Source: a virus
Taxonomy: Duplodnaviria > Caudoviricetes
Reading direction: 5' to 3' (one strand)
Virus record (IMG/VR): IMGVR_UViG_3300037510_000097
Coordinates: 1 to 26,428 of that record
Length of the DNA stretch: 26,428 bases
In this document: positions 337-22,828 of the stretch, one piece after another
How positions within the stretch are numbered: the first letter of the stretch is position 1
Layout: each line of letters opens with the position of its first letter
Program-made: the position numbers and the translations under genes
Notes under the pieces: model-generated
Told to the model about the DNA's origin: nothing
What the model saw: only the letters and a program-made list of their open reading frames with translations
The model's database searches: none

Positions 337-2981
337 GCGCCGATCAGGTCGGGGTGCGTGCTAGCGCCGTACTGGCGCCGCGCGGTTACGCCTTGCAGCC
401 GTCCGACGTGCAAGCCGCGCGAGCGCAGCGCGAAGGCGATGCGCTTACGATGGCTGCGCGCGCCAATGAAGCGCACGTGTTGATCAAGCTGCGTATTCGT
501 CAGGTAGATCCAGTTGCGATCGTTTCCGACCTGATCCGCGTGCCAGTCGAAACCGATCACGGCTTCGCCCGATTGATCAACGCGCTTCTCCGGCACGCCG
601 CGATCCCACAGCTCGTGAATCACCTGCTCTACGTCGCTGACTTCCATATGCTTCGACGCCACAGCAGCCGCTAGCGCGGCTTCGTCCGCGGTCAGATAGG
701 TTTGCTCGCCTGCGCGGTATAGTGCGACTGCAGCGCCCCACAGCGTGTCGCGTAGCTCGGCTATCGCCGCGAGATCGATCGGCCGTTCGCGTGTCGCGTG
801 CGTCTCGAGCACGTTGACGCGGCTGTTGCCGGTCATGTCTACGAACAACTGGCCCGTGTTCGTTGTGCCGCACGGGATTGAGCGACGCGGGTGATCCTTT
901 TCGGTACGTGCGTACGCGCTGCGAAAAGTATCCACGCGAGTAGATAGAAAATTCTTCACGGCGCCTGTGCGATCGGCGCGCAAGTCTTTGTCGATTTCGT
1001 CAATGCAGACGATCCACTTACCGAGAATCAGCGCCTTGTTATCGCGGCTGCCGTCGATCTGCGCGCCTTCGAGGAACCAGTTTCGATCGGGACACAGAGC
1101 GCCAAACGTATTCGACTTACCTACGTTTTGGCTTTCCGAAAACAACACGAGCACTTCGCGTTGAATACACCCCGGCTCGAATGCGCGCTGAACGGCCGAC
1201 AGTAGCCAGCGCTTACCGACCGCGCGCGCGTAGGGCGTATCGCTAACCTGAACGTGTGAGATCCAAAACAGCTCTAAGAATTCGCGAGCTTCGTCAAGCG
1301 TGCCATCCCAAACGCAGCTATCCAGGTAGTCCGTAACCGGGTTGAACACCATACCCTGCGCCAGCGTCGCGAAGGCTTCTGCGAGCATCGCAGGCGTAGC
1401 GTAAGCGTAATCGTGCACATCGGAAATGTACGAAACGGCTAGACTGTAGTCCGCGTCTTCGATCTGCCGTGGGAACGGTCGCACGTCGTCAGGACGCCAT
1501 GGCGGCGCGCGCATGACGCAGACGCGCGCAGCGAATTCGTTGTAGCCGAGCACATCCGAGATATCGGGCAGCGACGCGATCGCGAAAACGTTCGCGTAGC
1601 AGCGCTCTACGCCGCCAAGCTCATTGCGTGCCAAGTCACCGATTGCTTTTGGTCGCCACGGGTCCAGCATACCCGCATCGATCGCGGTCGCTAGCGTCGT
1701 TTCGATATCGGGGCGCGGAATGCCCTGCTTACCGAGCGTGCATACCTCGATCGCCGCGTCTTCGATTTGCTGACGCGAGAGGTAGTGCGGCACGTAGCGC
1801 CCGAGATCGCGCGCGACTACGGCGAGCTGTTGCGGGTTGCCGCGTAGAATTTTCTTGGCGGTTTCGAGCTTCTTTTGCGCCTTGAAAACGTCGCGTACGT
1901 CGATACTGCCCGGATCCGCGGGCGCGGCGGGCTGTACAACGATCGTTTCGCCGGGCGGCATGCGTTTTCGGAAGCTGGCGGCGTCGGGGTAACGCGCGCG
2001 CAGCCAGCGCCCGAGCGTTCCGGCCGGCAAGCGCTCGAGGAATTCGCACGGCGTACCGACGAAAACGCCGCCCGCGGTCGCGGTACCCACGGGCGGATCG
2101 AGCTGCGCATGTTTGCCACCGTGGCAATTCCATCGGCCGTCTTCGCGTACGGCAAGGCCGTCGCTCGAGCCACACGCCGGGCATTCGTAGCGCGTAGCGC
2201 CGGGCTCGTACTCAGCGAGGATTTCGGCGTGTTCGGCGTTCCATGCCTCAAGCGCCCGCGCCGTTAGCGGATCCATGTTGTCGGGGCGTGACAACACCGC
2301 TAACGGCGCGGGCGCTTCAAACGCAGGCACGGCAACGAAATCGGATTCACACTGAACAAGCCCAATACGGGCGCTCATAGGATCGGCAATGCCGGGATCG
2401 ATCAACGGATCCGCCGTAAAGTGGGGCTGTACCGTGCGAAAAACGGACGTGTCGATCTTCAGCGGTACGTCGCGCAACCACGTTTTCAGCTGCGCGCCCG
2501 TGACGGGAACCTGCAGAAGAAACCACAAGTGCAACCGGATCCCGTCCTTGAAGCCTGCGCTACCGGATGCGCGCCAAACGTAGGACGCTGTGTGAAACTC
2601 GGGCGGCAGGCGTTCAACAATATCGGCTGCGAAGTCTGCGGGGTGGCTTGGAAACAGCCCGGTAAAGCCGGGCGGCTCGTCTACGGAGTCGAAATCAAGT
2701 AACACCCACGCCTGCGGTACTTCGATTAGATTGGCGTCTTCGTCGGCGCTTGTGCGGCGACACGGCTGCTCTGTATCAGGCTTGAGAACACCGCGGATAA
2801 CACACGCGTCGCGACGGCCGCGCAGCTCGGAAAGCAGATCGAACAGCTCGAGCGCGGAATCTACGCGTCGCGGCGTATACGTCCACAGGTACGGGAGCGG
2901 GGGAACAGGATCAACGCCGTTCGTCGTGACGTGCTTGCACAGATGCGCGCCCGCGGACGAAGCGACGGTAAGGAACGCCAT
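333..2981 (-). CDS. Primase-helicase fusion: AEP/Rep-like primase N-domain, Zn-finger, VapE/VirE-like P-loop ATPase
   Basis: 882 aa. LLDFD, SGSAG and RLHLWF primase-type motifs; CPAC...CHGGKH; Walker A SQNVGKS, Walker B IDEID, and FRSAYAR...GTTN typical of VapE-like domains. Confidence 0.85.
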   Translation of the reverse strand: MAFLTVASSAGAHLCKHVTTNGVDPVPPLPYLWTYTPRRVDSALELFDLLSELRGRRDACVIRGVLKPDTEQPCRRTSADEDANLIEVPQAWVLLDFDSVDEPPGFTGLFPSHPADFAADIVERLPPEFHTASYVWRASGSAGFKDGIRLHLWFLLQVPVTGAQLKTWLRDVPLKIDTSVFRTVQPHFTADPLIDPGIADPMSARIGLVQCESDFVAVPAFEAPAPLAVLSRPDNMDPLTARALEAWNAEHAEILAEYEPGATRYECPACGSSDGLAVREDGRWNCHGGKHAQLDPPVGTATAGGVFVGTPCEFLERLPAGTLGRWLRARYPDAASFRKRMPPGETIVVQPAAPADPGSIDVRDVFKAQKKLETAKKILRGNPQQLAVVARDLGRYVPHYLSRQQIEDAAIEVCTLGKQGIPRPDIETTLATAIDAGMLDPWRPKAIGDLARNELGGVERCYANVFAIASLPDISDVLGYNEFAARVCVMRAPPWRPDDVRPFPRQIEDADYSLAVSYISDVHDYAYATPAMLAEAFATLAQGMVFNPVTDYLDSCVWDGTLDEAREFLELFWISHVQVSDTPYARAVGKRWLLSAVQRAFEPGCIQREVLVLFSESQNVGKSNTFGALCPDRNWFLEGAQIDGSRDNKALILGKWIVCIDEIDKDLRADRTGAVKNFLSTRVDTFRSAYARTEKDHPRRSIPCGTTNTGQLFVDMTGNSRVNVLETHATRERPIDLAAIAELRDTLWGAAVALYRAGEQTYLTADEAALAAAVASKHMEVSDVEQVIHELWDRGVPEKRVDQSGEAVIGFDWHADQVGNDRNWIYLTNTQLDQHVRFIGARSHRKRIAFALRSRGLHVGRLQGVTARRQYGASTHPDLIGA

Positions 2982-6945: not shown

Positions 6946-8733
6946 GTGGCCGAAAGCCGCGCCCGAGCCGCCCTTGAAGCCGCGTTGAAGCGCGGCGGAT
7001 TGTCGCTGGACGATCTGCCGCGCAACACACGCGAAGGGCGTGCCATCCGCAAATACGGCGTGTACGCGTCGCAGGAATTCAAGCGGATTGACGCGCTCCC
7101 GCGGCGCGAGTGGCACGCGTACGAAAACCTGCAGGACATCATAACGACTGTGTCGGATCACTTGCGGGCGCCGGGCGGCACGCAAACGCTGTTTCCTGTG
7201 CAGGCGGTTGCGTTACTCGAATGCGCCGATCACAGCGGCTTGATCGCTGGCATCCGCACGGGCGGCGGAAAGACGATCCCGAGCTTCCTCGCGTCCGTCA
7301 TGCTGGACGCGAAACGCCCGGTGCTGTTCGTGCCCGCCAAGCTGCGGACGAAAACCGAAAATGATCTGCAGGCGGCGCGTGAACACTGGCGCGTGCCAAA
7401 CGATCTGCAGGTCATGAGCTACGAAGACTTGAGCCAAGTTTCGTGGTGCGATTGGCTCATGAACTATCAGCCCGGCGCCGTGATCGGCGACGAAGCGCAC
7501 AAGCTCAAGAGCGATGATAGCGCCCGCGCGCTGCGCATGGAGCGCTTTCTAGAGGCGTTCCCGAAGACGCCCGTAGTTCTGTTTTCGGGTACGTTTCTGC
7601 GCAAGAATCCACGCGACGCAGCGAAGCTTTTCGGGTGGGCGCTTGGCGAGCGCAGCCCGTTTCCGCTGGTTTGGAAAGACGTAGAAGACTGGTGTAGTGC
7701 GCTCGATCCGCGCGCGCGCAAGCCGATGGCGCCGGGCGCTCTGCTCAACTGGCTCGAGCCGGGCGAGACTGAGACGCCCGGCGCTGTGCGGCTCGCGGTT
7801 GGCCGGCGTGTAGCGCAAACCCCCGGCGTAGTCATGAGCCACGGCAAGGGCGTAGATTGCGGGCTACAGGTCGTTGCGGATGTGATCGAGCATGAAGCAT
7901 GTGAACCGCACATGAAGCGCCTAAAGACGCTGGACGAAGCGCCTGACGGATGGGTGATCAATGATGCTCCGGTCAAGTGGGGCGTAGAGCAGACGCTAGC
8001 GCTCGGATTCTATTACGTACCCGATCCGCGGCCGCCTGACGAATGGGCGACTGCGCGGCGCGAATGGAACGCACTAGCGCGCGAGCTGATCAAGGACAAG
8101 CGCACAACGATCGACAGTGACCTACAGGCATGGAACGCATGCGCGGCCGCAGATCCGCAACCGGAGATCTTCACGACGTGGCGCGACATTCGCGATACGT
8201 TCGAAATGAACGTAAGCCCGGTGTGGTTTTCAGACGAGATCGTGCAGAAAGCCGCTGCGTGGCTGAAGAAACACGAAGGCGTAGTGTGGACGCAGTACAC
8301 GGCTTTCGGCGAACGTCTAGCCGAGCTGGCGGGCGTTTCGTACTTCAGCGCGGACGCATGCGATGCGCACGGGCTAAGCCTTGTGCACGCGCCCGCGGGT
8401 CCGTGCGTGGCGTCGATTGAAGCGTGCGGCGAGGGCTTGAACCTGCAGGATCGTTGGCACCGTTGCCTGTACGTTATGCCGCCAAGTAACGGCGCGCTGT
8501 GGGAGCAATCACTTGCGCGCTTTCATCGGCTCGGGCAGCCGAAAACCGAGGTAATCGCGGATGTGTGGATCACGTCGCGCGTGGCATGGAACAATCTACA
8601 GAACGCGATCGCGGCCGAGAAAGCGATTTCGCAACTTTCGCTAGACGATCAGCGCAAGCTCGCGATTGCGGACGTGCTGCTACCCGCGGAGCACGAAGTG
8701 TTGGGGCGTCCCGGATACAGGTGGGTGCGTTGA
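6946..8733 (+). CDS. SF2 (SNF2-like) DNA helicase
   Basis: TGGGKT, DEAH, SGT, EGLNLQ, EQSLARFHRLGQ; GTG 6946 just after the upstream stop is the likely start. Confidence 0.9.
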   Translation: MAESRARAALEAALKRGGLSLDDLPRNTREGRAIRKYGVYASQEFKRIDALPRREWHAYENLQDIITTVSDHLRAPGGTQTLFPVQAVALLECADHSGLIAGIRTGGGKTIPSFLASVMLDAKRPVLFVPAKLRTKTENDLQAAREHWRVPNDLQVMSYEDLSQVSWCDWLMNYQPGAVIGDEAHKLKSDDSARALRMERFLEAFPKTPVVLFSGTFLRKNPRDAAKLFGWALGERSPFPLVWKDVEDWCSALDPRARKPMAPGALLNWLEPGETETPGAVRLAVGRRVAQTPGVVMSHGKGVDCGLQVVADVIEHEACEPHMKRLKTLDEAPDGWVINDAPVKWGVEQTLALGFYYVPDPRPPDEWATARREWNALARELIKDKRTTIDSDLQAWNACAAADPQPEIFTTWRDIRDTFEMNVSPVWFSDEIVQKAAAWLKKHEGVVWTQYTAFGERLAELAGVSYFSADACDAHGLSLVHAPAGPCVASIEACGEGLNLQDRWHRCLYVMPPSNGALWEQSLARFHRLGQPKTEVIADVWITSRVAWNNLQNAIAAEKAISQLSLDDQRKLAIADVLLPAEHEVLGRPGYRWVR

Positions 8734-8823
8734 CGAATTCGTACGCACGCACCTTGCAAGTGCGCTTGCGCAATGGTAAGTGTCCTAACAACTGGCGGCT
8801 ACGCCGCACGAAAGGTCGAAACA

Positions 8824-9336
8824 ATGGGTTTGCAAGCACGATTCAAGCGGGGTCTCAAACCGGGTGGCGTTCGCTCGCCGTTCCTGACGCCCGGTAAGTT
8901 CAAGGTGAAGTGCGAGAGCATGCGGTTCGTCAAGGGGACGCGCGCAGGTACGGACCTGTTCGCGCTCGAGATGACGATCCTCGAAAGCGACGATCCGAAC
9001 ACGAAACCGGGCTCGCGCCGTCAGTATTCCGTGACGGACAACGAAGACAATCAGGGCTTCATTCTCACGATCGCCATGGCGTTCATGGGGATCGATCCGA
9101 CCGTCGTTCCCACCGACGAAGAGCTGGCGGACATCGGTACCGCGCTCGAAACGTTCGCGGCGCCCGAAGAAAAGGACGCAACCGGCAAGGTGATCAAGGG
9201 TCAGGCGGCTCGCGGGCTCGTCTGCATGGTCAACGCGTACCACCTCATGAAGAAGGGCGAGATCGTCAAGACGAAGAAGGGCGATCCGGTCACGGTCGGT
9301 TCGTTCTACCCGTGCGACGAAGCCGCAGCGGCGTGA
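8824..9336 (+). CDS. Probable ssDNA-binding/replication accessory protein (DUF669-like OB fold)
   Basis: Beta-rich PGKFKVK...ALEMTILESD pattern, position between helicase and polymerase, AAAGG before ATG 8824. Function is inferred. Confidence 0.5.
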   Translation: MGLQARFKRGLKPGGVRSPFLTPGKFKVKCESMRFVKGTRAGTDLFALEMTILESDDPNTKPGSRRQYSVTDNEDNQGFILTIAMAFMGIDPTVVPTDEELADIGTALETFAAPEEKDATGKVIKGQAARGLVCMVNAYHLMKKGEIVKTKKGDPVTVGSFYPCDEAAAA

Positions 9337-9342
9337 TCGGGT

Positions 9343-9545
9343 CCCGAGCTACGTAACGAGTACGGCGGGCAGTGGTACGCCGCCGATCAGGGCGCCTGCA
9401 TTGGCCCGCAGTCGGGGATTCGCCGTACTCGTTATGTAGCTCGGGCGTTTCAACGTACGCCCCGGGCAGGTTCGATCCCGGGTATGAAGCCAGACAAGGC
9501 CCGAAAGGGTGTACATGGTGGCGATCGGGGCGCGCGTTGAAACGC
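9343..9545 (+). ncRNA. Candidate structured RNA with two long stems enclosing structured loops
   Basis: 9343-9367 pairs with 9421-9445 (25 bp, one G-U); 9445-9464 pairs with 9526-9545 (20 bp, one G-U, one mismatch); internal GCCC-GAAA-GGGT hairpin. Confidence 0.6.
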
Positions 9546-9620
9546 GTATCATCTAAGTAAGATCCCGATCGATCGGGGAATGTAGGGCGCTACAATCCTA
9601 CTGCGCGTTTCGCTAATTTT

Positions 9621-10202
9621 ATGACACTTGCAGCCAAAGACGCAGCTACGCTAGACGGCGCGCATTACCTAGGCGCGGCTGGCGCGCGCGCGCGTATGAC
9701 GTACGCAGACGCACACGGACTGATCGTCTTCAGCGGTTGCGGATCGCGTAGGCTGCCGCGCGACTGGCTTGAACTATCACGTTGGTGCATTGCAGAAAAT
9801 GGCGTAGGTTCGCAACAATGGGCGTCATGCGTTGCATGGTTGCGCACGCAAACAAGCGCCAGCACAATCGTAAGCTACTCAGATCCGTCCGTAGGCCATA
9901 CAGGTGCGCTGTATCGCGCGTGCAATTGGATCTGGGCACCCGTCTGGCACGTGCTTCGTGAACCGCCAACGGGTTGTGGTATCCGAGCCGGCAAGCTGCA
10001 GCGCGCGAAACATCGGTGGGTGTACCTGCTTCGCGAAGATGCGCGGCGCGCGTCCGTGCTCGCGCTGAACGATGCGTCACTGCAGCGAAAGTACCCATGG
10101 ATCGGCTATTCCGAGCCGGAATGGCGGCGCGGCGTGCCGCAGCTACGTAATCAAGATCGCTTTCGTCGGTGGCAGGAAATGCGCATGTCGGCTGTTGAAT
10201 GA
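9621..10202 (+). CDS. Mom-like (GNAT-fold) adenine-modification protein
   Basis: HYL, LELSR and IVSYSDPSVGHTGALYRACNW, the motif set of Mu Mom-like proteins. Confidence 0.8.
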   Translation: MTLAAKDAATLDGAHYLGAAGARARMTYADAHGLIVFSGCGSRRLPRDWLELSRWCIAENGVGSQQWASCVAWLRTQTSASTIVSYSDPSVGHTGALYRACNWIWAPVWHVLREPPTGCGIRAGKLQRAKHRWVYLLREDARRASVLALNDASLQRKYPWIGYSEPEWRRGVPQLRNQDRFRRWQEMRMSAVE

Positions 10203-10306
10203 AATTTGCCTTCGACACCGAAGCCGCACTAATCGCTCCGGGCCTGCTCGCGCCGCCCATGGCGTGCGTTTCGTGGGCTAACGAGCAATGCGGCTCGGGC
10301 CTGTTT
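10199..10306 (+). repeat. Direct repeat copy 1 (108 bp)
   Basis: 99/108 identical to 11049-11156; first 69 bp identical. Confidence 0.95.
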
Positions 10307-10360
10307 GTGGCAGGTAGACTCCTAGCCGGGGCGTACGTTGAAACGGTATGGTTGAACTAA
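10199..10360 (+). pseudogene. Duplicated 5' fragment of the DNA polymerase gene (53-aa ORF)
   Basis: MKFAFDTEAALIAPGLLAPPMACVSWANEQCGSGLF then unrelated sequence to TAA; matches the polymerase N-terminus. Confidence 0.85.
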
Positions 10361-11052
10361 AAGACGCAATCGAAGGTCTGCACAGCTTGCCGCAACAAAG
10401 CGCTGCGCTCGTGCTTTCGGACCTACCGTCTGGCGAAACCCGCGCCGAATTCGATCGCGCGCCCGACTTGACGCGCTTGTGGCCCGCGGTGTGGCGTGTG
10501 CTTGCCGCGGACGGCGCCGCGGTTTTCATGGCGTCGTCGCTGCGCTTTGCAGCCTCAATTGTCGCGTCACAGCCCAACGCGTTTCGCTATGATCTAGTAT
10601 GGTCGAAGAGCTTAGCTACGGGACACTTGAACGCGCGTACGCGACCGTTGCGTGCACATGAATTCGTGTTAGTATTCTGGCGCAATCCAGGCTGTTTTAC
10701 GCCGCAAATGCTTTCGGGCGCAACGCCGATCCATGCCGCGCGAGCCGCCGCGCGGCATGGCGAGAATTACAACCCCAGAACCGCGGTTACCGAATCACGC
10801 AAGGGTGCGACGGATCGATATCCTACGTCCGTGCTTGAATTCGGAAGCGTGGGCACGACCGCGCCTGAACGCATACACCCGCAGCAAAAGCCCGTTGCGC
10901 TTCTTCGCTGGCTGATCCGGAGTTACAGTCACCCCGGGGATTTGATCGTGGACCCGTACGCAGGTAGCGGTAGTACCGGAGTTGCGGCACAAGCCGAAGG
11001 TCGGCGTTTTGTCGGTTTCGATTCATCGCCGCGCTTCGGTGCCACGCTATGA
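10348..11052 (+). CDS. Beta-class N6/N4 DNA methyltransferase with atypical motif IV
   Basis: Motif IV position SDLPS, HPQQKPVALL, motif I DPYAGSGSTG near the C-terminus. Confidence 0.85.
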   Translation: MVELKDAIEGLHSLPQQSAALVLSDLPSGETRAEFDRAPDLTRLWPAVWRVLAADGAAVFMASSLRFAASIVASQPNAFRYDLVWSKSLATGHLNARTRPLRAHEFVLVFWRNPGCFTPQMLSGATPIHAARAAARHGENYNPRTAVTESRKGATDRYPTSVLEFGSVGTTAPERIHPQQKPVALLRWLIRSYSHPGDLIVDPYAGSGSTGVAAQAEGRRFVGFDSSPRFGATL

Positions 11053-11156
11053 AATTTGCCTTCGACACCGAAGCCGCACTAATCGCTCCGGGCCTGCTCG
11101 CGCCGCCCATGGCGTGCACTTCGTGGGCGAATGCGCAACTAGGCTCGGGCTTGTTT
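11049..11156 (+). repeat. Direct repeat copy 2 (108 bp), start of the intact polymerase gene
   Basis: 850 bp downstream of copy 1. Confidence 0.95.
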
Positions 11157-13118
11157 CATGTGCGCGACGTGCGCGATCGCATCGAAGAGTGGTTGCGCCC
11201 CGGTTGTCTGCTGATCGGCGCAAATACCGCTTTCGATTCAACGGTTATCTGCGCGCAATTTCCTGAGTACACCGCGTCGGTTTTCGACAAGTACGAGCGC
11301 GGCGAGTTTCGCGATGTGCTGATCGATCAACGGCTGATCGATATCGCGCGCGGCGAGCTTGGCGGATACACGTACGTTGATCCCGACGAAGATCCCGACG
11401 ACGAAGATCGCGGAACGCGCATTGATTACCTGTACAACTTGAGCGCACTTCACGATCGATACGGATTCGGCCCGCTCGAGAAAGACGAATGGCGGCTCAA
11501 GTACGGCGGGCTAATTGACGTACCCATGTCGCAGTGGCCAGCCGGCGCTAAGGCGTATTCGGAGCTTGACGCAGTCGCTACGATGCGCGTGCATCTAGCG
11601 CAGCAAGAATTCGCGGAGTACCTTGGTGACGGCGCGGCGCAGGCTCGAGCGGCGTTCGCGTTACATCTCATGTCGTGCCGCGGTGTGCGTACGGATCCCG
11701 TCGCGTGCGAGCGGCTGGCCGTAGAGCTAGAAGCCGAAATCATTCGGTGCCGCAAGCTGTGCGAGCAGATCAAGCGTCCGATCGAAGTCGTCAAAAAGCG
11801 CTCCAAAGGCGGCGTAAAGTACGAAGAACGTACGACCGAAATGCGCGCTATGGTGCGCGACAACGAAGACGGCACGTATTCCAAAACTAAGGCCGTCGTT
11901 CAGCAGTACATGGTCGAAGCCAGCGCACGCGCGGGCGTGCCCGTCAAGATCACGAAAACAGGTCAGAAGAAAAAGAGTACGGATCTCGAATACGTCAGCA
12001 CGGACTACGAAGCGTGCACCGACACGGGTGATCCGGTACTCGCGGCGTACACTACGTTTACGAGCGCGACGACGTTACGTAAGAAGGTGGAACGCTTGAA
12101 GCAGGGCGCGTACCTGCCGTTACAAACGCGCTTTGAAGTGCTGCAGGCAACGGGGCGCACCGCGTCTATGAAGCCGGGTGGCGCGCTTGTGGGTGACAAC
12201 TTTCAGAACTTCGCACGTAACGGGCTTGTGACCGATCAGAAGCACGAGCTTCCCGGCGTCCGTGGTTGTGTCGTGCCGCGCCCCGGTTACGCGTTCGTTT
12301 CGGTGGACTGCCCGAATGCCGAAATGCGTGCCATGGGGCAGATCTGCATTTGGACCGTAGGCTACAGCATTCTTGCAGACGCGCTGAACGCGAATCGCGA
12401 TACGCACCTAGCGCTAGCGGCGGCGCATCTCGGAATGCCGTACGAGTCATCCGAGGCGCTGCTAGAAGCCGAAGACAAAGCGATCGCAGAGCTGCGGCAG
12501 TTTATGAAGATCCCTAACTTTTCGCTACTCGGCGGCGCGTCGTACAAGGCAATGATACCGTTCGCGAAACGCCAGAAACCCGCCGTGATTTTGAGCGAAG
12601 ACAAGGCGCGCGATCTATACAATACGTTTCACAGCACGTGGACGGAGATCGGAATCTACCACGATCAAATCAAGTCGGCGTGCCGTCGCGGCAATACTGA
12701 ATTCGTGCAATTCATTTCGGAGCGCGTACGCGGAAACTGCAAATACACGGTTGCGTGCAATACAGGGTTTCAAGGACTCACCGGAGACGCAGCGAAAGCG
12801 GCGCTACTCCCGGTCGCGAATGAGTGTTACACGGGGCGCATGCCCGGCTCAAGCAAACGATCGCCGCTCTTCGGAAGCTTCCCGGTGTTCTTCGTGCATG
12901 ATGAGATCGTGACCGAAACGCCGATCCCGATGATCCACGAAGCCGGGCACAGGCTGGCCGAGTTGGCGGTCAAACCGTGGAACGACATTTACACACCTGA
13001 CGTGAAAATGACAACGAAGCCTGCGGCTATGTTGCGGCTTGCGAAGGGTGCGAAACCCGTCTATGATTCGTCAGGTGTGTTACAAATCTGGCACCCGAAA
13101 GAGAAGGTAGCAGCGTGA
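11049..13118 (+). CDS. Family A DNA polymerase with 3'-5' exonuclease
   Basis: Exo FDTE, NTAFD, YSELD; ATGRTAS, NFQN, motif A DCPNAEMR, motif B RQFMKIPNF, motif C VHDEIV. Confidence 0.93.
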   Translation: MKFAFDTEAALIAPGLLAPPMACTSWANAQLGSGLFHVRDVRDRIEEWLRPGCLLIGANTAFDSTVICAQFPEYTASVFDKYERGEFRDVLIDQRLIDIARGELGGYTYVDPDEDPDDEDRGTRIDYLYNLSALHDRYGFGPLEKDEWRLKYGGLIDVPMSQWPAGAKAYSELDAVATMRVHLAQQEFAEYLGDGAAQARAAFALHLMSCRGVRTDPVACERLAVELEAEIIRCRKLCEQIKRPIEVVKKRSKGGVKYEERTTEMRAMVRDNEDGTYSKTKAVVQQYMVEASARAGVPVKITKTGQKKKSTDLEYVSTDYEACTDTGDPVLAAYTTFTSATTLRKKVERLKQGAYLPLQTRFEVLQATGRTASMKPGGALVGDNFQNFARNGLVTDQKHELPGVRGCVVPRPGYAFVSVDCPNAEMRAMGQICIWTVGYSILADALNANRDTHLALAAAHLGMPYESSEALLEAEDKAIAELRQFMKIPNFSLLGGASYKAMIPFAKRQKPAVILSEDKARDLYNTFHSTWTEIGIYHDQIKSACRRGNTEFVQFISERVRGNCKYTVACNTGFQGLTGDAAKAALLPVANECYTGRMPGSSKRSPLFGSFPVFFVHDEIVTETPIPMIHEAGHRLAELAVKPWNDIYTPDVKMTTKPAAMLRLAKGAKPVYDSSGVLQIWHPKEKVAA

Positions 13119-15717: not shown

Positions 15718-16232
15718 TGGCGAGACAATCGAAAGATCCAATAGCGGACGCGGCTGCGAAGGTGGCCGCGCGGCGGCTGCCCGACCTGCGCGGAGTTTCG
15801 TTTACGTCAATCGATCCAGGAACGGCGTACTACGGTTGGGCTCTATGGAGTCTAGATGGCTTTTTGTGCAAGTGTGACTATGAGCCGTCAATCAATCCGG
15901 TGCACATGTACGATCCGGGAATCGGAATCGTAGAACAGCCTGTGGTATACCCTAATAGTCCGGTCCCGCCGCAGGATATTGCCGCGCTTGCGTTTAGCGC
16001 GGGACGTATTCTAGGGAACTACGAAACGCAGTACGCGGTAGAGCCGCGCCAATGGAAAGGCACGACGGACGGCACGGCGTTTCTGCGGCGTATCGAGCGC
16101 GCAATCAACAGACTCTCAATACGTGAACGGCTGACCGTTACGGAAACGCTTTCCAGACTTCCGAAGACGAAACATGAGCATGTGCTGGACGCAATCGGGC
16201 TCGGGCTTGTCGTGAGAGGGATCAAGGTATGA
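15717..16232 (+). CDS. RuvC-like Holliday junction resolvase
   Basis: SIDPG, IVEQP, PRQWK, DAIGLG. Confidence 0.8.
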   Translation: MARQSKDPIADAAAKVAARRLPDLRGVSFTSIDPGTAYYGWALWSLDGFLCKCDYEPSINPVHMYDPGIGIVEQPVVYPNSPVPPQDIAALAFSAGRILGNYETQYAVEPRQWKGTTDGTAFLRRIERAINRLSIRERLTVTETLSRLPKTKHEHVLDAIGLGLVVRGIKV

Positions 16233-16840
16233 GCTACAAGATCGGTGATGAAGTTACATATATCGGCGCAACTAGCGCCGTGTGCGGATTGAGATACGGT
16301 GTTAGATACGCGATCGAAAAATCGACTCCGCGATCCGTGCGTATCGGCGGGGTTTGGGTTGAATCGGGGCTCGTATCCAGTGCCGTGGCGCCCGCGCAGG
16401 CTCCGGCCGCCAAGCCCGCGTCCGCCGCGCCGCTCGCGATGCGCAAGGACGCCGGCAAGCCTCAGCCAATCTACACGGACCTGTGGCCCGAAGCGATCAA
16501 AGGCATCGATCGCGTCTCGAAGTTCGGCGAGACGAAATACGCGAAGTATAATTTCACGAAAGGCGCCCCGTTCAGCCAACATTACAACTGTCTGCGGCGC
16601 CACATGATCGCGCTGCTGAACGGCGAGGATAAAGACCCTGACGCGGCGGCGGCGGGCTACGAAGTGTGGCACGTGGACTCGATCGCTTGGAACGCAATGC
16701 GCATGGCGCACGAGTTTCACGCGCGCCCCGAGCTGGACGATCGGCCGCACGTGCTGGCGGCGCGGGAGCGCGCAGCTCAGGCTGAGGCGCAGCGCGCGAT
16801 CGAGTCGGGACCGTTTGCGGAAAGTGAGCAAAAGAAATGA
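16229..16840 (+). CDS. DUF5664 (dATP/dGTP diphosphohydrolase-like) protein with N-terminal extension
   Basis: KDAGKP...FGETKYAKYNFTKG...LRRH...GEDKDPD...H...AWNA. Confidence 0.85.
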   Translation: MSYKIGDEVTYIGATSAVCGLRYGVRYAIEKSTPRSVRIGGVWVESGLVSSAVAPAQAPAAKPASAAPLAMRKDAGKPQPIYTDLWPEAIKGIDRVSKFGETKYAKYNFTKGAPFSQHYNCLRRHMIALLNGEDKDPDAAAAGYEVWHVDSIAWNAMRMAHEFHARPELDDRPHVLAARERAAQAEAQRAIESGPFAESEQKK

Positions 16841-17674: not shown

Positions 17675-19408
17675 ATGCCGAAATCCCCGCGCGCCGCGTC
17701 CCCCGTACCCGTTGAAGTCGGCACCGCGGCTGCAGCCGAGCGCATGGACGAGTGGGCGTCTCGAGTCACCGGAATCAATACCGGCGCAGACAAGCGAAAT
17801 TCATACCGCTTTCAGCCCGTCCCTGTGCTCACGCCCGAGCAAGCGGACGCGATGTACAACAGTAACGATCTCGCGTCGTTGATCTGTAGCATCCACGCCG
17901 AAGAAGCGCTAGCGGAAGGGATCCGGCTGTGCGTTACGGCGCCTGACGGCGCCGACAACGAAGACGGCGCGGGGATCGATGCGAAGCTTATGGACCGTCT
18001 GGACGAGCTGCAGGCCGTGCAGATGATTCAAGAGAGCGACGTATTTTCAAACGTTCATGGCGACTGCTTCCTTTACCTAGGCGTCGAAGACGGCGCCGCG
18101 TCGCAAGCCGAGCCGCTTGATCTTTCAAAGGTTACGAAACTGAATTTCTTGAAGGTTGTGGAACGGACGCAGCTTTCGACAGGCATCCGCTACAACGATA
18201 CGAGTAAGCCGCAGCTGTTCGGACGCCCGCAAACGTACAACGTGGTTTCCGAGCTTGGCGCTACGTCCGTGGTTGTGCACGAATCGCGCTTTATCAAGAT
18301 GTTCGGCGCGCGCACTTCGACCGCGGCATTGCGTAAGAATAGCTATTGGCACTTCAGTGCGCTGCAGCGCGTTCAATACGTTTTGCGCGACTTCGGGATC
18401 ACGTGGGATAGCGCCGCGCTGCTGATCCAAAACGCGTCGCAGGGCGTGTACAAGTTGAAGGATTTTCTTGCTTTGCTTGCGTCGAAAGACGGCGCCGCGA
18501 CTATGGAGAAGCGCGCACAGCTCGTGGACGCGTTTCGTAGCGCCGTGCGCAGCATTATCTTAGACGAGTCGGAAAGTTTCGAGTACCAGTCTATTGCGTT
18601 TACGGGCGTGCCTGACATGATGGACCGCTTTGCGGCGCGTCTGGCGACCGCGACGGGCATCCCGGTAAGTAAGTTGATCGGCGTTGCGGGCGGCGGACTG
18701 AACGCCACAGGCGAGGGGGATCGCCGCAATTGGCAGGCGCGGCTACGCGCATACAGCCGCACGAAGCTGAAACCCGTTTTCGACCAGCTGTTGAAGATTC
18801 TGGCGATCGAGTTGAAGGTTCCCGAAGGCACGAAAATCACGGTGGAGTTTTGTCCGCTCGAGCAACCCACGGATGCGGAGCTTGCTGAGCTGCGTAATAA
18901 GCAGGCGCAAACGGATCATCTGTACATCCAAGATCAGGTGCTCACACCCGAAGAAGTCGCGATCGCACGCTTCCCCAAAGGCGGATACTCGACGGATACG
19001 GAGATCGATCTCACACTCCGTAAGAAGATCATCGAAACCGCGGACGAAGAAGCGCAGCAAAACCCGGGTGACATGGGCACGGTTGGCGCACGCGCTACCG
19101 CAATTATGGCCGTGCTCGATCACGTAGCTGCGAAGCAGATCCCGCGCGAAGTCGGCGTGCTGCTTCTGCAGAATCTTTTCGGCATGACCGCCGAACAGGC
19201 TGACGCACAGATCGGGGACGTAGGCGATGGATTCGAGCCCGAAAATCAGCAAGCTGTGGACGGTACTGCGGCACAGGGTGTTACGCCGGGTGCGAAGCAG
19301 CAAACGCCGGGCGCTCCCGCGGGCGCGGGTGCCAAGCCACGCGGCGTACCTAGAGGAGTTGCTGCAGCTAAGCCGCGACTGCCAAGCGCTCGTAAGCCGT
19401 CAGCTTGA
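17675..19408 (+). CDS. Phage portal protein (DUF1073 type)
   Basis: VHESR, ATGIPVSKLIG...GLNATGEGD..NW, F.PL.QPT..E.A and Y...VLTPEEV patterns. Confidence 0.88.
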   Translation: MPKSPRAASPVPVEVGTAAAAERMDEWASRVTGINTGADKRNSYRFQPVPVLTPEQADAMYNSNDLASLICSIHAEEALAEGIRLCVTAPDGADNEDGAGIDAKLMDRLDELQAVQMIQESDVFSNVHGDCFLYLGVEDGAASQAEPLDLSKVTKLNFLKVVERTQLSTGIRYNDTSKPQLFGRPQTYNVVSELGATSVVVHESRFIKMFGARTSTAALRKNSYWHFSALQRVQYVLRDFGITWDSAALLIQNASQGVYKLKDFLALLASKDGAATMEKRAQLVDAFRSAVRSIILDESESFEYQSIAFTGVPDMMDRFAARLATATGIPVSKLIGVAGGGLNATGEGDRRNWQARLRAYSRTKLKPVFDQLLKILAIELKVPEGTKITVEFCPLEQPTDAELAELRNKQAQTDHLYIQDQVLTPEEVAIARFPKGGYSTDTEIDLTLRKKIIETADEEAQQNPGDMGTVGARATAIMAVLDHVAAKQIPREVGVLLLQNLFGMTAEQADAQIGDVGDGFEPENQQAVDGTAAQGVTPGAKQQTPGAPAGAGAKPRGVPRGVAAAKPRLPSARKPSA

Positions 19409-20186
19409 GCCGATCCTTGCGGACTACGCGGCTGCGCTCGAGCCGGTTCGGCAGGACGCGCTAAGCGACGATCCCGCGCGCACTGCACGCGTTCGCGCAA
19501 TCAAGCTTCGCGCGCGTAAAGCTTTCGCAGAAATCCGCGCAACGGCGGTTCACGACTTCCCGCACAAGATCCGCAAGGTTGCGACGCGATTTGCGACGCG
19601 AACCGAGCAGACGAACCGCGTAGCCATGAACGCGCAGTTTCATTCGCTGACGAAACTAAACGTGTTCGGCACGTCGCCCGAAATTGATAATGTGCTTCAC
19701 GAAGCGATCCGATCGAACGCTCTGCAAATCAGCTCGATTCCCGAAACGCAAATCAACCAAGTTGAGCGCGTCGTATACGAAGCTATGGATCGCGGTTCGC
19801 GCGTAGAAACGTTGCGCAATCAGATCGAGGAGCGTTTCAGTGTCAGCGAATCGAAAGCCGAGCTGATCGCGCGCACGGAAACGGCGAAATTCAACGCTAC
19901 GCTTGCACGCACGCGTCAAGAGGATCTCGGAATCTCGCGGTATAAGTGGAGCAACAGCCACGATGAACGCGTACGTGGCAATCCGGATGGTGCATATCCG
20001 AAATCCAGCGAAGATCACTGGCACTTAGAAGATCAGATCTGCAGTTATGACGATCCGCCCGTGGTGGACGAAAAGCGCGGAATCAAAGCGAATCCCGGGG
20101 AACGCCCGAATTGTAGGTGTACGGCGATCCCGCTCGTGGATGACGTGCTAGACGCGCTCGGCGTTTCGGCGGACGAAGAGCCTTGA
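19290..20186 (+). CDS. Minor head protein (Mu gpF/SPP1 gp7-like); start uncertain (19227, 19290 or 19329)
   Basis: AELIARTET, YKWSNSHDERVR, PGERPNCRC; follows the portal gene. Confidence 0.88.
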   Translation: MRSSKRRALPRARVPSHAAYLEELLQLSRDCQALVSRQLEPILADYAAALEPVRQDALSDDPARTARVRAIKLRARKAFAEIRATAVHDFPHKIRKVATRFATRTEQTNRVAMNAQFHSLTKLNVFGTSPEIDNVLHEAIRSNALQISSIPETQINQVERVVYEAMDRGSRVETLRNQIEERFSVSESKAELIARTETAKFNATLARTRQEDLGISRYKWSNSHDERVRGNPDGAYPKSSEDHWHLEDQICSYDDPPVVDEKRGIKANPGERPNCRCTAIPLVDDVLDALGVSADEEP

Positions 20187-20214: not shown

Positions 20215-20442
20215 ATGGTGATCCTGCCGCCGCCGAATCTCGAATCAATGAAGCGCTCGATCGCGCCCGTGCCCGCGCTGCGTAAAGTCGTCGTAAAGCT
20301 AAAGCAGTACGAAGGCTACACGCAAACGGTGCTCGAAGGTGCACAGAAGCAGCCGGGTACGCACACGTTTCAGGTCGAAGCTGTGAAAATCGAACGCGCG
20401 TCAACGATTCGGCCGAAGCGTGGGAAGCGGGCGCGTAAGTGA
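20215..20442 (+). CDS. Small basic hypothetical protein
   Basis: Fills the gap and overlaps the next start. Confidence 0.55.
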   Translation: MVILPPPNLESMKRSIAPVPALRKVVVKLKQYEGYTQTVLEGAQKQPGTHTFQVEAVKIERASTIRPKRGKRARK

Positions 20443-21113
20443 TCCAAACCCAAGCCAGGCGTAACACCATGAGCGCGCTCGGCGGGCTTCCCGTCCACGG
20501 TGACGCCATGCAGGGTCTCGCGACCGGCAACCGCACCGGCAAGCCAGCGAAGCGCGAACAGCAGATCTACAGCCCCGAGAATCTGCTAGAGGCGGTCACG
20601 CTCTTCGGCGATGGCGCAATCGCCTGCGATCCGTGCTCGGGTCCTGATTCGATTGTGCGCGCAAATAACGTTTACGTAGGTACGCGCGTTCAGAAACACG
20701 ATAGTCACGGCGTTCCCGTCTTCAAGAAAATCAAGGACGTAACCGCTCCCGAAGGCTTTCGGCTCGAGCCTAAAATGATCTGGACTGGCCCGGGGCTTAC
20801 GGCAACGTGGGCGTTCGGCGGGCTCGTCTACGTAAATCCGCCGTACGAAGAGCTGCAAGCGTGGCTCGCAAAAGCACTACGCGAGGCGGCTGCCGGTGTT
20901 GAGATCATCGTGCTTGGCCCCGTACGGCCGCACCGTAAGTGGTGGCGTAAATCGTGGAACAAAGCCAATGCTCGCATGTGGCTGGACCCGCTGCGTTTCG
21001 TCGGCTTTACGCAAACGTTCCCCGCCCCGCTGTGCTTGTGGTACTTCGGCCCGCGGGCTGCGTGGTTCAAAGAAGTTTTCGAAGCTTCCGAGTTGGGAGA
21101 GCTGTCGCCGTGA
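20439..21113 (+). CDS. Phage Dam-like N6-adenine DNA methyltransferase
   Basis: DPC, VYVNPPY, W..KA, P.R...WW and LRF motifs. Confidence 0.85.
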   Translation: MIQTQARRNTMSALGGLPVHGDAMQGLATGNRTGKPAKREQQIYSPENLLEAVTLFGDGAIACDPCSGPDSIVRANNVYVGTRVQKHDSHGVPVFKKIKDVTAPEGFRLEPKMIWTGPGLTATWAFGGLVYVNPPYEELQAWLAKALREAAAGVEIIVLGPVRPHRKWWRKSWNKANARMWLDPLRFVGFTQTFPAPLCLWYFGPRAAWFKEVFEASELGELSP

Positions 21114-22234: not shown

Positions 22235-22828
22235 ATGCGCAATGCGTGGATCGTCCTAGCCGTATTCCTCGGATCCTGCTTCGTCAAACCCGCGCCTGCG
22301 CGCCTACCGAACACCGCGCCGATCGGCGTTTACGGTCCCATATTGCGAGTCTTTGACTCGGGCTCGTTTCATTGCACGGGCGTGCTCGTGGGGCCGCGCA
22401 TCGCGTTATCAGCTGCGCACTGCTTCGCGGATATGAACAGCTCGGGGCGTTTTTACGTTACACGCGATCCGCATGAAACGCGAAACTACGTTACGCGATC
22501 GTTTCATGTTCCCGATTCAGATGTCGAGATCCTCACGCTGGATAACGAGCTACCGAAACCGTACGCGCGCCCGGGTACGCGCCTGCATACGTACGCGCGC
22601 GCATGGATCGTCGGGTACGGTTGCCGCTTCGACTGGCACGGCTACCGCCAGCTCGAGACGCGCGCACTGACCGCGCTGGCGCCCGCTGTCTTTGCAGGCA
22701 AGGCGTGCCCGGGGGATAGCGGCGGCGCGATTTACGACGACGCAGGCGGGCTCGTGGGCATCACGTCGGCGATATCGACGAAAGGGCCGGCTACGGTTTA
22801 TGCAAGCGACGTGAGCCTAGATCCTTAG
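22235..22828 (+). CDS. Trypsin-like (S1) serine protease, probable lipoprotein
   Basis: Signal ending LGSC; CTGVLV, SAAHC, SDVEIL, CPGDSGG give a full His-Asp-Ser triad. Confidence 0.9.
   Translation: MRNAWIVLAVFLGSCFVKPAPARLPNTAPIGVYGPILRVFDSGSFHCTGVLVGPRIALSAAHCFADMNSSGRFYVTRDPHETRNYVTRSFHVPDSDVEILTLDNELPKPYARPGTRLHTYARAWIVGYGCRFDWHGYRQLETRALTALAPAVFAGKACPGDSGGAIYDDAGGLVGITSAISTKGPATVYASDVSLDP

Follow-up and report, generated by a model that had tools for sequence, protein, structure and literature searches.

Two long hairpins with tRNA-like loops follow the SSB-like gene in the replication operon of a soil phage

The locus and its two hairpins

The window (the whole stretch of 26,428 nt analysed here) comes from a soil phage and is half of a tailed-phage record; a complete twin genome of 50,740 nt (G001) carries the element described below in identical form, with a few letters differing elsewhere. 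Exonuclease, helicase and SSB-like genes lie in this order upstream of the element, and mom, methyltransferase and family A polymerase genes downstream. The SSB-like gene (8824..9336, + strand) encodes 170 amino acids and belongs to an ORF family that related phages carry between their helicase and DNA polymerase A genes. It has neither a Pfam nor a PHROG match, and its atlas lead is DUF669 (16% of one cluster's members). PrgE and DUF669 are here assumed to be OB-fold single-strand binders, and because the structural model of the protein (pLDDT 83) finds PrgE as its best solved Foldseek match (E 2e-5), together with weak matches to SSBs, calling the gene 5' of the element SSB-like seems reasonable; the label, which rests on this model match, the DUF669 lead and synteny, is likely correct. 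Downstream of the element, the mom-like DNA-modification gene (9621..10202, + strand; Pfam PF25680, E 1.5e-11) has a stop codon overlapping the ATG of a polymerase stub (10199..10306, + strand). This stub duplicates the first 108 nt of the polymerase gene at 92% identity, the first 69 nt being identical and all 9 differences falling within the last 39, and its reading frame continues to a stop at 10360. An N6/N4 DNA methyltransferase gene follows (10348..11052, + strand; PF01555, E 2.3e-24), and its stop codon and the ATG of the family A DNA polymerase gene proper (11049..13118, + strand; PF00476) overlap. The closest relatives of the polymerase are at 74% and 72% and the closest mom at 80%, while two distant polymerase relatives (30-32%) bear Myxococcales names.

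Hairpin 1 (9343..9445, + strand) begins 6 nt past the SSB-like stop, on the operon strand, and hairpin 2 (9446..9544, + strand) abuts it. The first-pass annotation of this DNA had proposed stems of 25 and about 20 bp, and both are borne out: the first (9343-9367/9421-9445) consists of 24 Watson-Crick pairs and one G-U, and the second, formed by a left arm at 9446-9464 and a right arm at 9526-9544, has 19 positions of which 17 are Watson-Crick, one is U-G and one is an A-C mismatch, the right arm carrying two substitutions that are adjacent to each other. The interiors measure 53 and 61 nt, both open with GGCAG and close with GAT(T), and every motif quoted for them is present. The fold of 9330-9560 reaches -119.7 kcal/mol (z -5.7; none of 200 shuffles as good). 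The minus strand likewise folds (z -6.0), and the + strand is the better one as RNA (-69.1 versus -62.3 for hairpin 1, -45.7 versus -41.6 for hairpin 2), whereas DNA fold energies differ little between the strands. The stems account for the entire excess stability, the interiors alone being no more stable than shuffles (z +0.3 and +0.6), and the twin genome holds only one other uninterrupted stem of at least 13 Watson-Crick pairs within 160 nt. Within the interiors, the D-like stem (pair probability in context about 0.8) and the GAAA hairpin (0.96-0.99), a GNRA loop closed by U-G on the + strand, hold up among the helices named earlier, whereas CCGAT/GTCGG (0.23) and GGGC/GCCC (0.05) do not; the pair closing the T-loop has a probability of 0.07-0.22. 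Complementarity between the two domains had also been claimed and proves to be at chance level, with 8 helices of at least 6 bp against a shuffle mean of 5.4 (P 0.14), 2 of at least 7 bp against 1.9 (P 0.59), and a duplex energy at P 0.21.

The statement that the element matches no known family agrees with the absence of Rfam matches (whole window at E<=5, locally at E<=10), and ARAGORN calls no tRNA gene in it. Neither hairpin is followed, after 9445 or 9544, by the U tract of a Rho-independent terminator. The element is a real structure outside the known RNA families. As for its having been announced as an undescribed phage non-coding RNA, the part concerning a structure without an Rfam family stands and its existence at the RNA level has support, while a designed mimic or a ribozyme finds none. 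No homologue of the interiors turned up in any of our searches: single-protein scans and blastn of annotated phages gave only the twin or chance matches; DNA patterns of the element returned 11 stretches of which 10 are unrelated, another pattern returned the twin only, and a further one returned 5 stretches, the 4 outside the twin being inside ORFs; single-sequence covariance models of both hairpins, run over 95 sources linked to the polymerase and 57 loci linked to mom, found no homologue (best E 3.7, 0.26, none and 0.2). GTDB held no relative of the polymerase alignment, none of 60 mom-linked loci contained the SSB or polymerase family, and in the open-access PMC and bioRxiv main texts we found neither the element nor a split tRNA-like RNA at this position described.

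Some other features of the genome deserve mention in their own right. It carries three DNA-modification genes, namely mom, the N6/N4 methyltransferase and a Dam-like gene (window 9621-11052, 16229-16840, 20439-21113), as well as a dATP/dGTP diphosphohydrolase. The portal and head-morphogenesis genes (window 17675-20186) are on the + strand like the replication genes and apart from the terminase, capsid and tail genes, which are on the - strand. A trypsin-like protease gene lies at window 22235-22828, and one relative (L098) has such a gene directly 5' of its polymerase. An SspB-like gene (G001:22566-23075, start near window 25930) matches PF04386 at the cut-off, this family being that of an adaptor for tmRNA-tagged proteins, here in a phage. 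Finally, a perfect 21-bp inverted repeat stands in the primase-helicase ORF (window 2250-2317) and shows one substitution in the twin genome.

A third arm copy and the descent of hairpin 2

Two features absent from the first-pass annotation bear upon the origin of hairpin 2, the polymerase stub and, just 3' of it, a third copy of the arm with a small apical hairpin (10309..10345, + strand). Its segment 10326-10345 is the exact complement of 9446-9465, including the left arm of hairpin 2 (-45.7 kcal/mol for this pairing, -35.1 for the local one), and 10327-10345 is a direct repeat of the right arm 9526-9544 at 17 of 19 positions, a weak likeness extending over some 15 nt more; the copy ends 2 nt before the ATG of the methyltransferase gene. 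Moreover, the first 7 nt of interior 2 (9465-9471) occur again at 10309-10315, 2 nt past the polymerase stub, and the + strand has no further copy of this word (the chance of meeting it at that place is about 0.003). The two words delimit a block of 844 nt (9465..10308, + strand) that comprises the interior of hairpin 2, its right arm, a 76-nt spacer, mom and the polymerase stub. When this block is deleted in silico, a simple 56-nt hairpin with a perfect 20-bp stem (-44.6) results, which would end 2 nt before the methyltransferase ATG; since removal of the block restores such a hairpin, stem 2 is probably a recombination chimera.

One fair reading of the sequence is that the block is an insertion or a duplicated-and-swapped unit. 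A simple 56-nt hairpin ahead of the methyltransferase gene would have received the 844 nt from a relative whose own hairpin carried the T-loop and was followed by mom. Mom and methyltransferase genes overlap a polymerase ATG in like manner, and two parental layouts, hairpin-mom-polymerase and hairpin-methyltransferase-polymerase, would now stand in tandem. The present hairpin 2 would then take its left arm from one parent and its interior and right arm from the other, which explains its two adjacent mismatches; the T-loop would have arrived together with mom, and, as it lies inside the block that seems to have entered with that gene, the D-like and T-like loops may differ in parentage. A 5-nt word also permits the distal piece to be aligned to the 3' end of interior 2; on that alignment a single crossover would have made the locus and both loops would come from one parent, an alternative to which we give about a third of the weight. 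The tandem arrangement is present in two assemblies, the window record and the twin. In three soil DNA runs, no variant letters and no joints were seen where they cover 8300-11500, and none of the independent pieces listed bridges the 10306/10307 junction. A wastewater run (X5), labelled RNA-Seq and probably DNA, holds a 200-nt contig identical to 9257-9454, which as the sole listed piece of 8300-11500 in that run shows presence only.

The SSB-polymerase gap in related phages

The polymerase alignment yielded 80 loci from viruses and 66 from metagenomes, all but the twin having 24-39% identity, and an SSB profile located the gene in 106 distinct loci. Of 90 distinct loci, 24 (the twin among them) have a helix of at least 15 bp that begins no more than 100 nt from the SSB stop, against 4 of 83 past the helicase stop, a control that is mostly coding DNA; with helices of at least 19 bp the figures are 13 of 90 and 1 of 83. 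Among 89 relatives, the non-Watson-Crick pairs of the stems, counted on the sense strand with a strand-symmetric stem finder, comprise 23 G-U against 4 A-C and 16 others (p 3e-4). This excess of G-U suggests that the stems act as RNA on that strand, for which it is the expected bias, and strand-biased mutation could partly account for it. The stems vary in sequence and interior from phage to phage. Two such stems occur in only 3 of 89 relatives; ten family stems enclose at least 30 nt, and two of those overlap the polymerase start; a U tract accompanies only 6 of 61 by a crude count; and the distance from the end of the last stem to the polymerase start is 14-41 nt in several relatives. Two small groups of relatives show sparse covariation, which depends on the alignment (1 of 8 and 8 of 26 pairs). 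Two relatives repeat the architecture of the present element. In one (L031:7355-7410 and 7441-7579), two long stems past the SSB gene each close a multiloop of sequence unrelated to the element, and in another (L029:5422-5499) a long stem, again unrelated in sequence, closes a multiloop with a D-arm-like hairpin and is accompanied by a U tract.

The same position is also a hot spot of tRNA-related features and holds exchangeable genes. ARAGORN finds tRNAs there in 5 of 106 loci, and 8 of 89 relatives possess a full T-arm no more than 300 nt from the SSB stop against 0.0074 per 300 nt elsewhere, an enrichment of about twelve times background. Among 42 ORFs scanned in the slot were 3 methyltransferases, 1 Tad2-like protein and 3 nucleases. 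Directly past the SSB gene of L084 (5575-5640), there is a D-armless, mini-tRNA-like RNA with a 7-bp acceptor, an 8-bp stem and a 6-bp T arm, which has no ARAGORN or Rfam match and shares the gap with a Tad2-like anti-Thoeris gene. Further tRNA-like elements behind the SSB gene of L111 (7815-7905 plus about 7970-7995) and L044 (7038-7125) have full T arms with abnormal D or anticodon arms, a long stem replacing the anticodon arm in L111, and neither finds an Rfam match at E<=0.5. As candidates for a new class of RNA, the tRNA-like RNAs of these three relatives are cleaner than the element itself.

The reading that we favour, an evenly balanced proposition by analogy with known operons, is that the hairpins belong to the replication-operon transcript and serve as 3'-end stabilisers or RNase III sites, with decayed parts of tRNAs as passengers. 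Selective processing and stabilisation of RNA is reportedly a known feature of polycistronic messages. In this phage, a long sense-strand helix does stand directly 3' of a gene inside an operon, as is the case for RNase III or stabilising stem-loops. The two long inverted repeats behind the SSB-like gene would fold in its messenger RNA, where the stems could be cut by host RNase III or block 3' exonucleases; in so doing, the hairpins would keep the SSB message plentiful and limit read-through into the DNA-modification and polymerase genes, so that SSB output would be uncoupled from that of the downstream genes. Transcription of the hairpins, their cleavage and an effect on expression are all presumed in this proposal. 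If it holds true, a large group of uncultured phages may set the ratio of SSB to polymerase by long 3' hairpins, and the gap between the two genes would be a hot spot for the exchange of tRNAs, of their relics and of genes for DNA modification or anti-defence, one such exchange being preserved in this genome with both cassettes in tandem: a useful rather than a surprising result.

The tRNA-like loops, other readings and known systems

In our reading, the spacing of interior 1 resembles that of tRNA positions 10-48, with a D-like arm at 9368-9381, a 5-bp stem at 9383-9387/9411-9415 and a 5-nt linker at 9416-9420, and this tRNA-like fold is 1.5 kcal/mol above the minimum. Interior 2 contains a T-loop-like segment (9469-9478), a CCA (9490-9492) and the GAAA hairpin (9499-9510). 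A strict T-loop pattern occurs in 0.6% of 20,000 shuffles of the element, and a D before a T in 0.05%, both patterns having been picked post hoc with the sequence already seen; a looser T-loop pattern has 6 occurrences over the two strands of the window. Neither the tRNA finders nor the Rfam tRNA model recognise a cloverleaf in the element, and the only ARAGORN call overlapping it needs an 85% threshold, at which the 50.7-kb twin genome gives 26 calls. Because relatives carry tRNAs and tRNA-like RNAs in the slot, a tRNA ancestry for parts of the interiors is supported. As stem 2 looks pieced together by the insertion of a DNA-modification gene, the tRNA-like loops are probably remnants rather than a tRNA mimic made for the purpose.

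In another reading, the stems are processing handles that free one or two small tRNA-derived RNAs, a T-armless module of D arm, anticodon arm and variable region and a module of T-loop and CCA, whose role would be that of a tRNA-elbow decoy or of a cofactor for Mom. Besides the arrangement of the loops just described and the intact or odd tRNA-like RNAs of the relatives, this idea draws on the presence of the T-loop interior in the same 844-nt block as mom. Glycine acceptors are identified by G1-C72, C2-G71, G3-C70, U73 and CCA. No 7-bp stem with this signature and TCCA exists in 9301-10400, and the same test does find one of the two Gly-type cloverleaves that stand just upstream of mom among 45 mom relatives (L199:2394-2466, the other being L249:2388-2460). 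A Gly carrier was sought because Mu Mom takes glycine from Gly-tRNA-Gly (PMC13219725) and the mom of Dehalococcoides has a tRNA-Gly-like locus. Against this idea, the T-stem forms only 3 of 5 pairs here and all 5 in each of the 8 relatives with a full T-arm, and ARAGORN recognises no tRNA when interior 1 is fused to the T-loop segment at any of 9 junctions (thresholds 90-100%). In addition, the interiors sit at opposite ends of an abutting helix of 44 bp and pair with each other no better than by chance, and the sibling hairpin at 10309-10345 differs in its apical loop. On balance, release of such RNAs is unlikely. Its stronger form, a bipartite RNA whose RNase III-freed modules, the T-armless one from hairpin 1 and the other from hairpin 2, dock as a tRNA-elbow mimic to distract host anti-tRNA nucleases or to serve Mom, has a poor chance of being right; a designed two-domain elbow mimic, along the lines of the first-pass annotation, has no support in view of the broken T-arm and the chance-level pairing between domains. 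Were the bipartite RNA real, it would be one of the unrecognised, stripped-down tRNA-like RNAs in an anti-defence slot of this phage group.

Rather improbable as well is a translational gate, in which the right arm of hairpin 2 would hide the start region of the downstream modification-gene/polymerase unit until cut or unwound, and pairing with 10321-10345 would do so for the methyltransferase. The position of the distal arm, 2 nt from the methyltransferase ATG, suits this model, as do the stems that end shortly before the polymerase start in several relatives and the finding that RNase III can unmask ribosome-binding sites (PMC5371410). Furthermore, the left arm pairs with the distal copy with a probability of about 1 in the equilibrium fold of 9337-10420. 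Prefix folds show, however, that the local hairpin forms 800 nt earlier in transcription, and ribosomes on the polymerase stub would traverse the distal arm. Antisense matches of the interiors to the rest of the genome are at chance (longest 12 and 10 nt; P 0.41 and 0.94). The first mom ATG lies 76 nt past the end of the element and is not covered by it, which also speaks against the earlier suggestion of a cis-regulator of mom.

The repeats might instead act as DNA, through cruciforms or single-strand hairpins at an origin, a pausing site or a recombination hot spot beside the SSB, helicase and polymerase genes, which we consider improbable. Both strands do fold far beyond shuffles with nearly equal DNA energies, and a recombination scar lies inside hairpin 2. 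The sense-strand G-U bias of the family and the GNRA loop speak for RNA, and in 2-kb bins there is neither an AT-rich stretch nor a turn of GC skew at the repeats. The scanned subset of ORFs, 28 from the window and 33 from the remainder of the twin, yielded neither a recombinase nor an integrase. The boxes of integron attC sites, RYYYAAC ... GTTRRRY, are absent.

Two last candidates fare worse. The arms have ends that we take to resemble the termini of CRISPR repeats (a 3' handle ending GTTGAAAC), and 10307-10344, with the length of a repeat and a hairpin, could be a solitary repeat unit, or the whole element a tracr-like RNA; this is very unlikely, given that exact-pattern scans revealed no array (7 stretches in IMG/VR, 2 from the twin and 5 single, and 4 single matches in GTDB), that the distal copy is accounted for as the right half of a hairpin, and that no cas gene was detected among the scanned ORFs. 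The chance of a self-cleaving ribozyme or pair of ribozymes, which the intergenic multiloops under long stems and the GNRA hairpin could evoke and which had been put forward earlier, is smaller still, no Rfam ribozyme matching and none of the short core patterns tried, of hammerhead, twister, pistol, hairpin, HDV-like or group II domain V type, appearing on either strand. Resemblances by eye to HDV-like and hairpin ribozymes, SRP helix 8, Alu-like RNA and T-boxes failed the motif and Rfam tests.

Comparison with described systems places the element beside several of them. Like the solitary repeat units and RNA anti-CRISPRs reported from phages (PMC10651486), it offers a short intergenic hairpin with a repeat-like 3' end, but no CRISPR array with this sequence was found in the scans and the unit belongs, as one of the arms, to a longer inverted repeat. 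It shares with YrlA, as outlined in PMC4201824, a long stem, D-like and T-like loops and an occurrence in phages; the D-like loop here precedes the T-like one and each has its own stem, whereas in YrlA a single domain holds T, acceptor-like stem and D in this order. The YrlA motif GNCGAAN(0-1)G, expected near the 5' end, is absent from the element, and for Ro60, whose gene would be expected on the same strand at a distance of up to about 4 kb, no TROVE match exists among 28 ORFs of the window and 33 more of the twin genome; a bacterial Y RNA was rejected for want of the motif, the stem-loop order, a Ro60 gene and an Rfam match. A tRNA-Gly-like element occurs in mom genes of Dehalococcoides ssrA islands (PMC3146451), and tRNA-like motifs lie close 5' of a Mom-family gene (PF25680) here too, within the same presumed block. 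They form no cloverleaf, Gly acceptor stem or U73-CCA, and neither adjoin nor enter the start of mom, being found 140-250 nt upstream in long hairpins. The closest parallel to our favoured reading, 3'-end hairpins of the SSB message, is provided by the intergenic RNase III sites of E. coli pflB-pflA and ahpC-ahpF and those named for T7 (PMC5371410), where cuts between genes can leave stabilising hairpins. In contrast to the E. coli sites, the element has two abutting stems with branched interiors of 53-61 nt and tRNA-like loops, and one of these stems is probably chimeric and faces competition from a distal arm. Like them, it consists of long stems between operon genes, of a length suited to RNase III, placed just 3' of a gene that would be expected to need the higher output.
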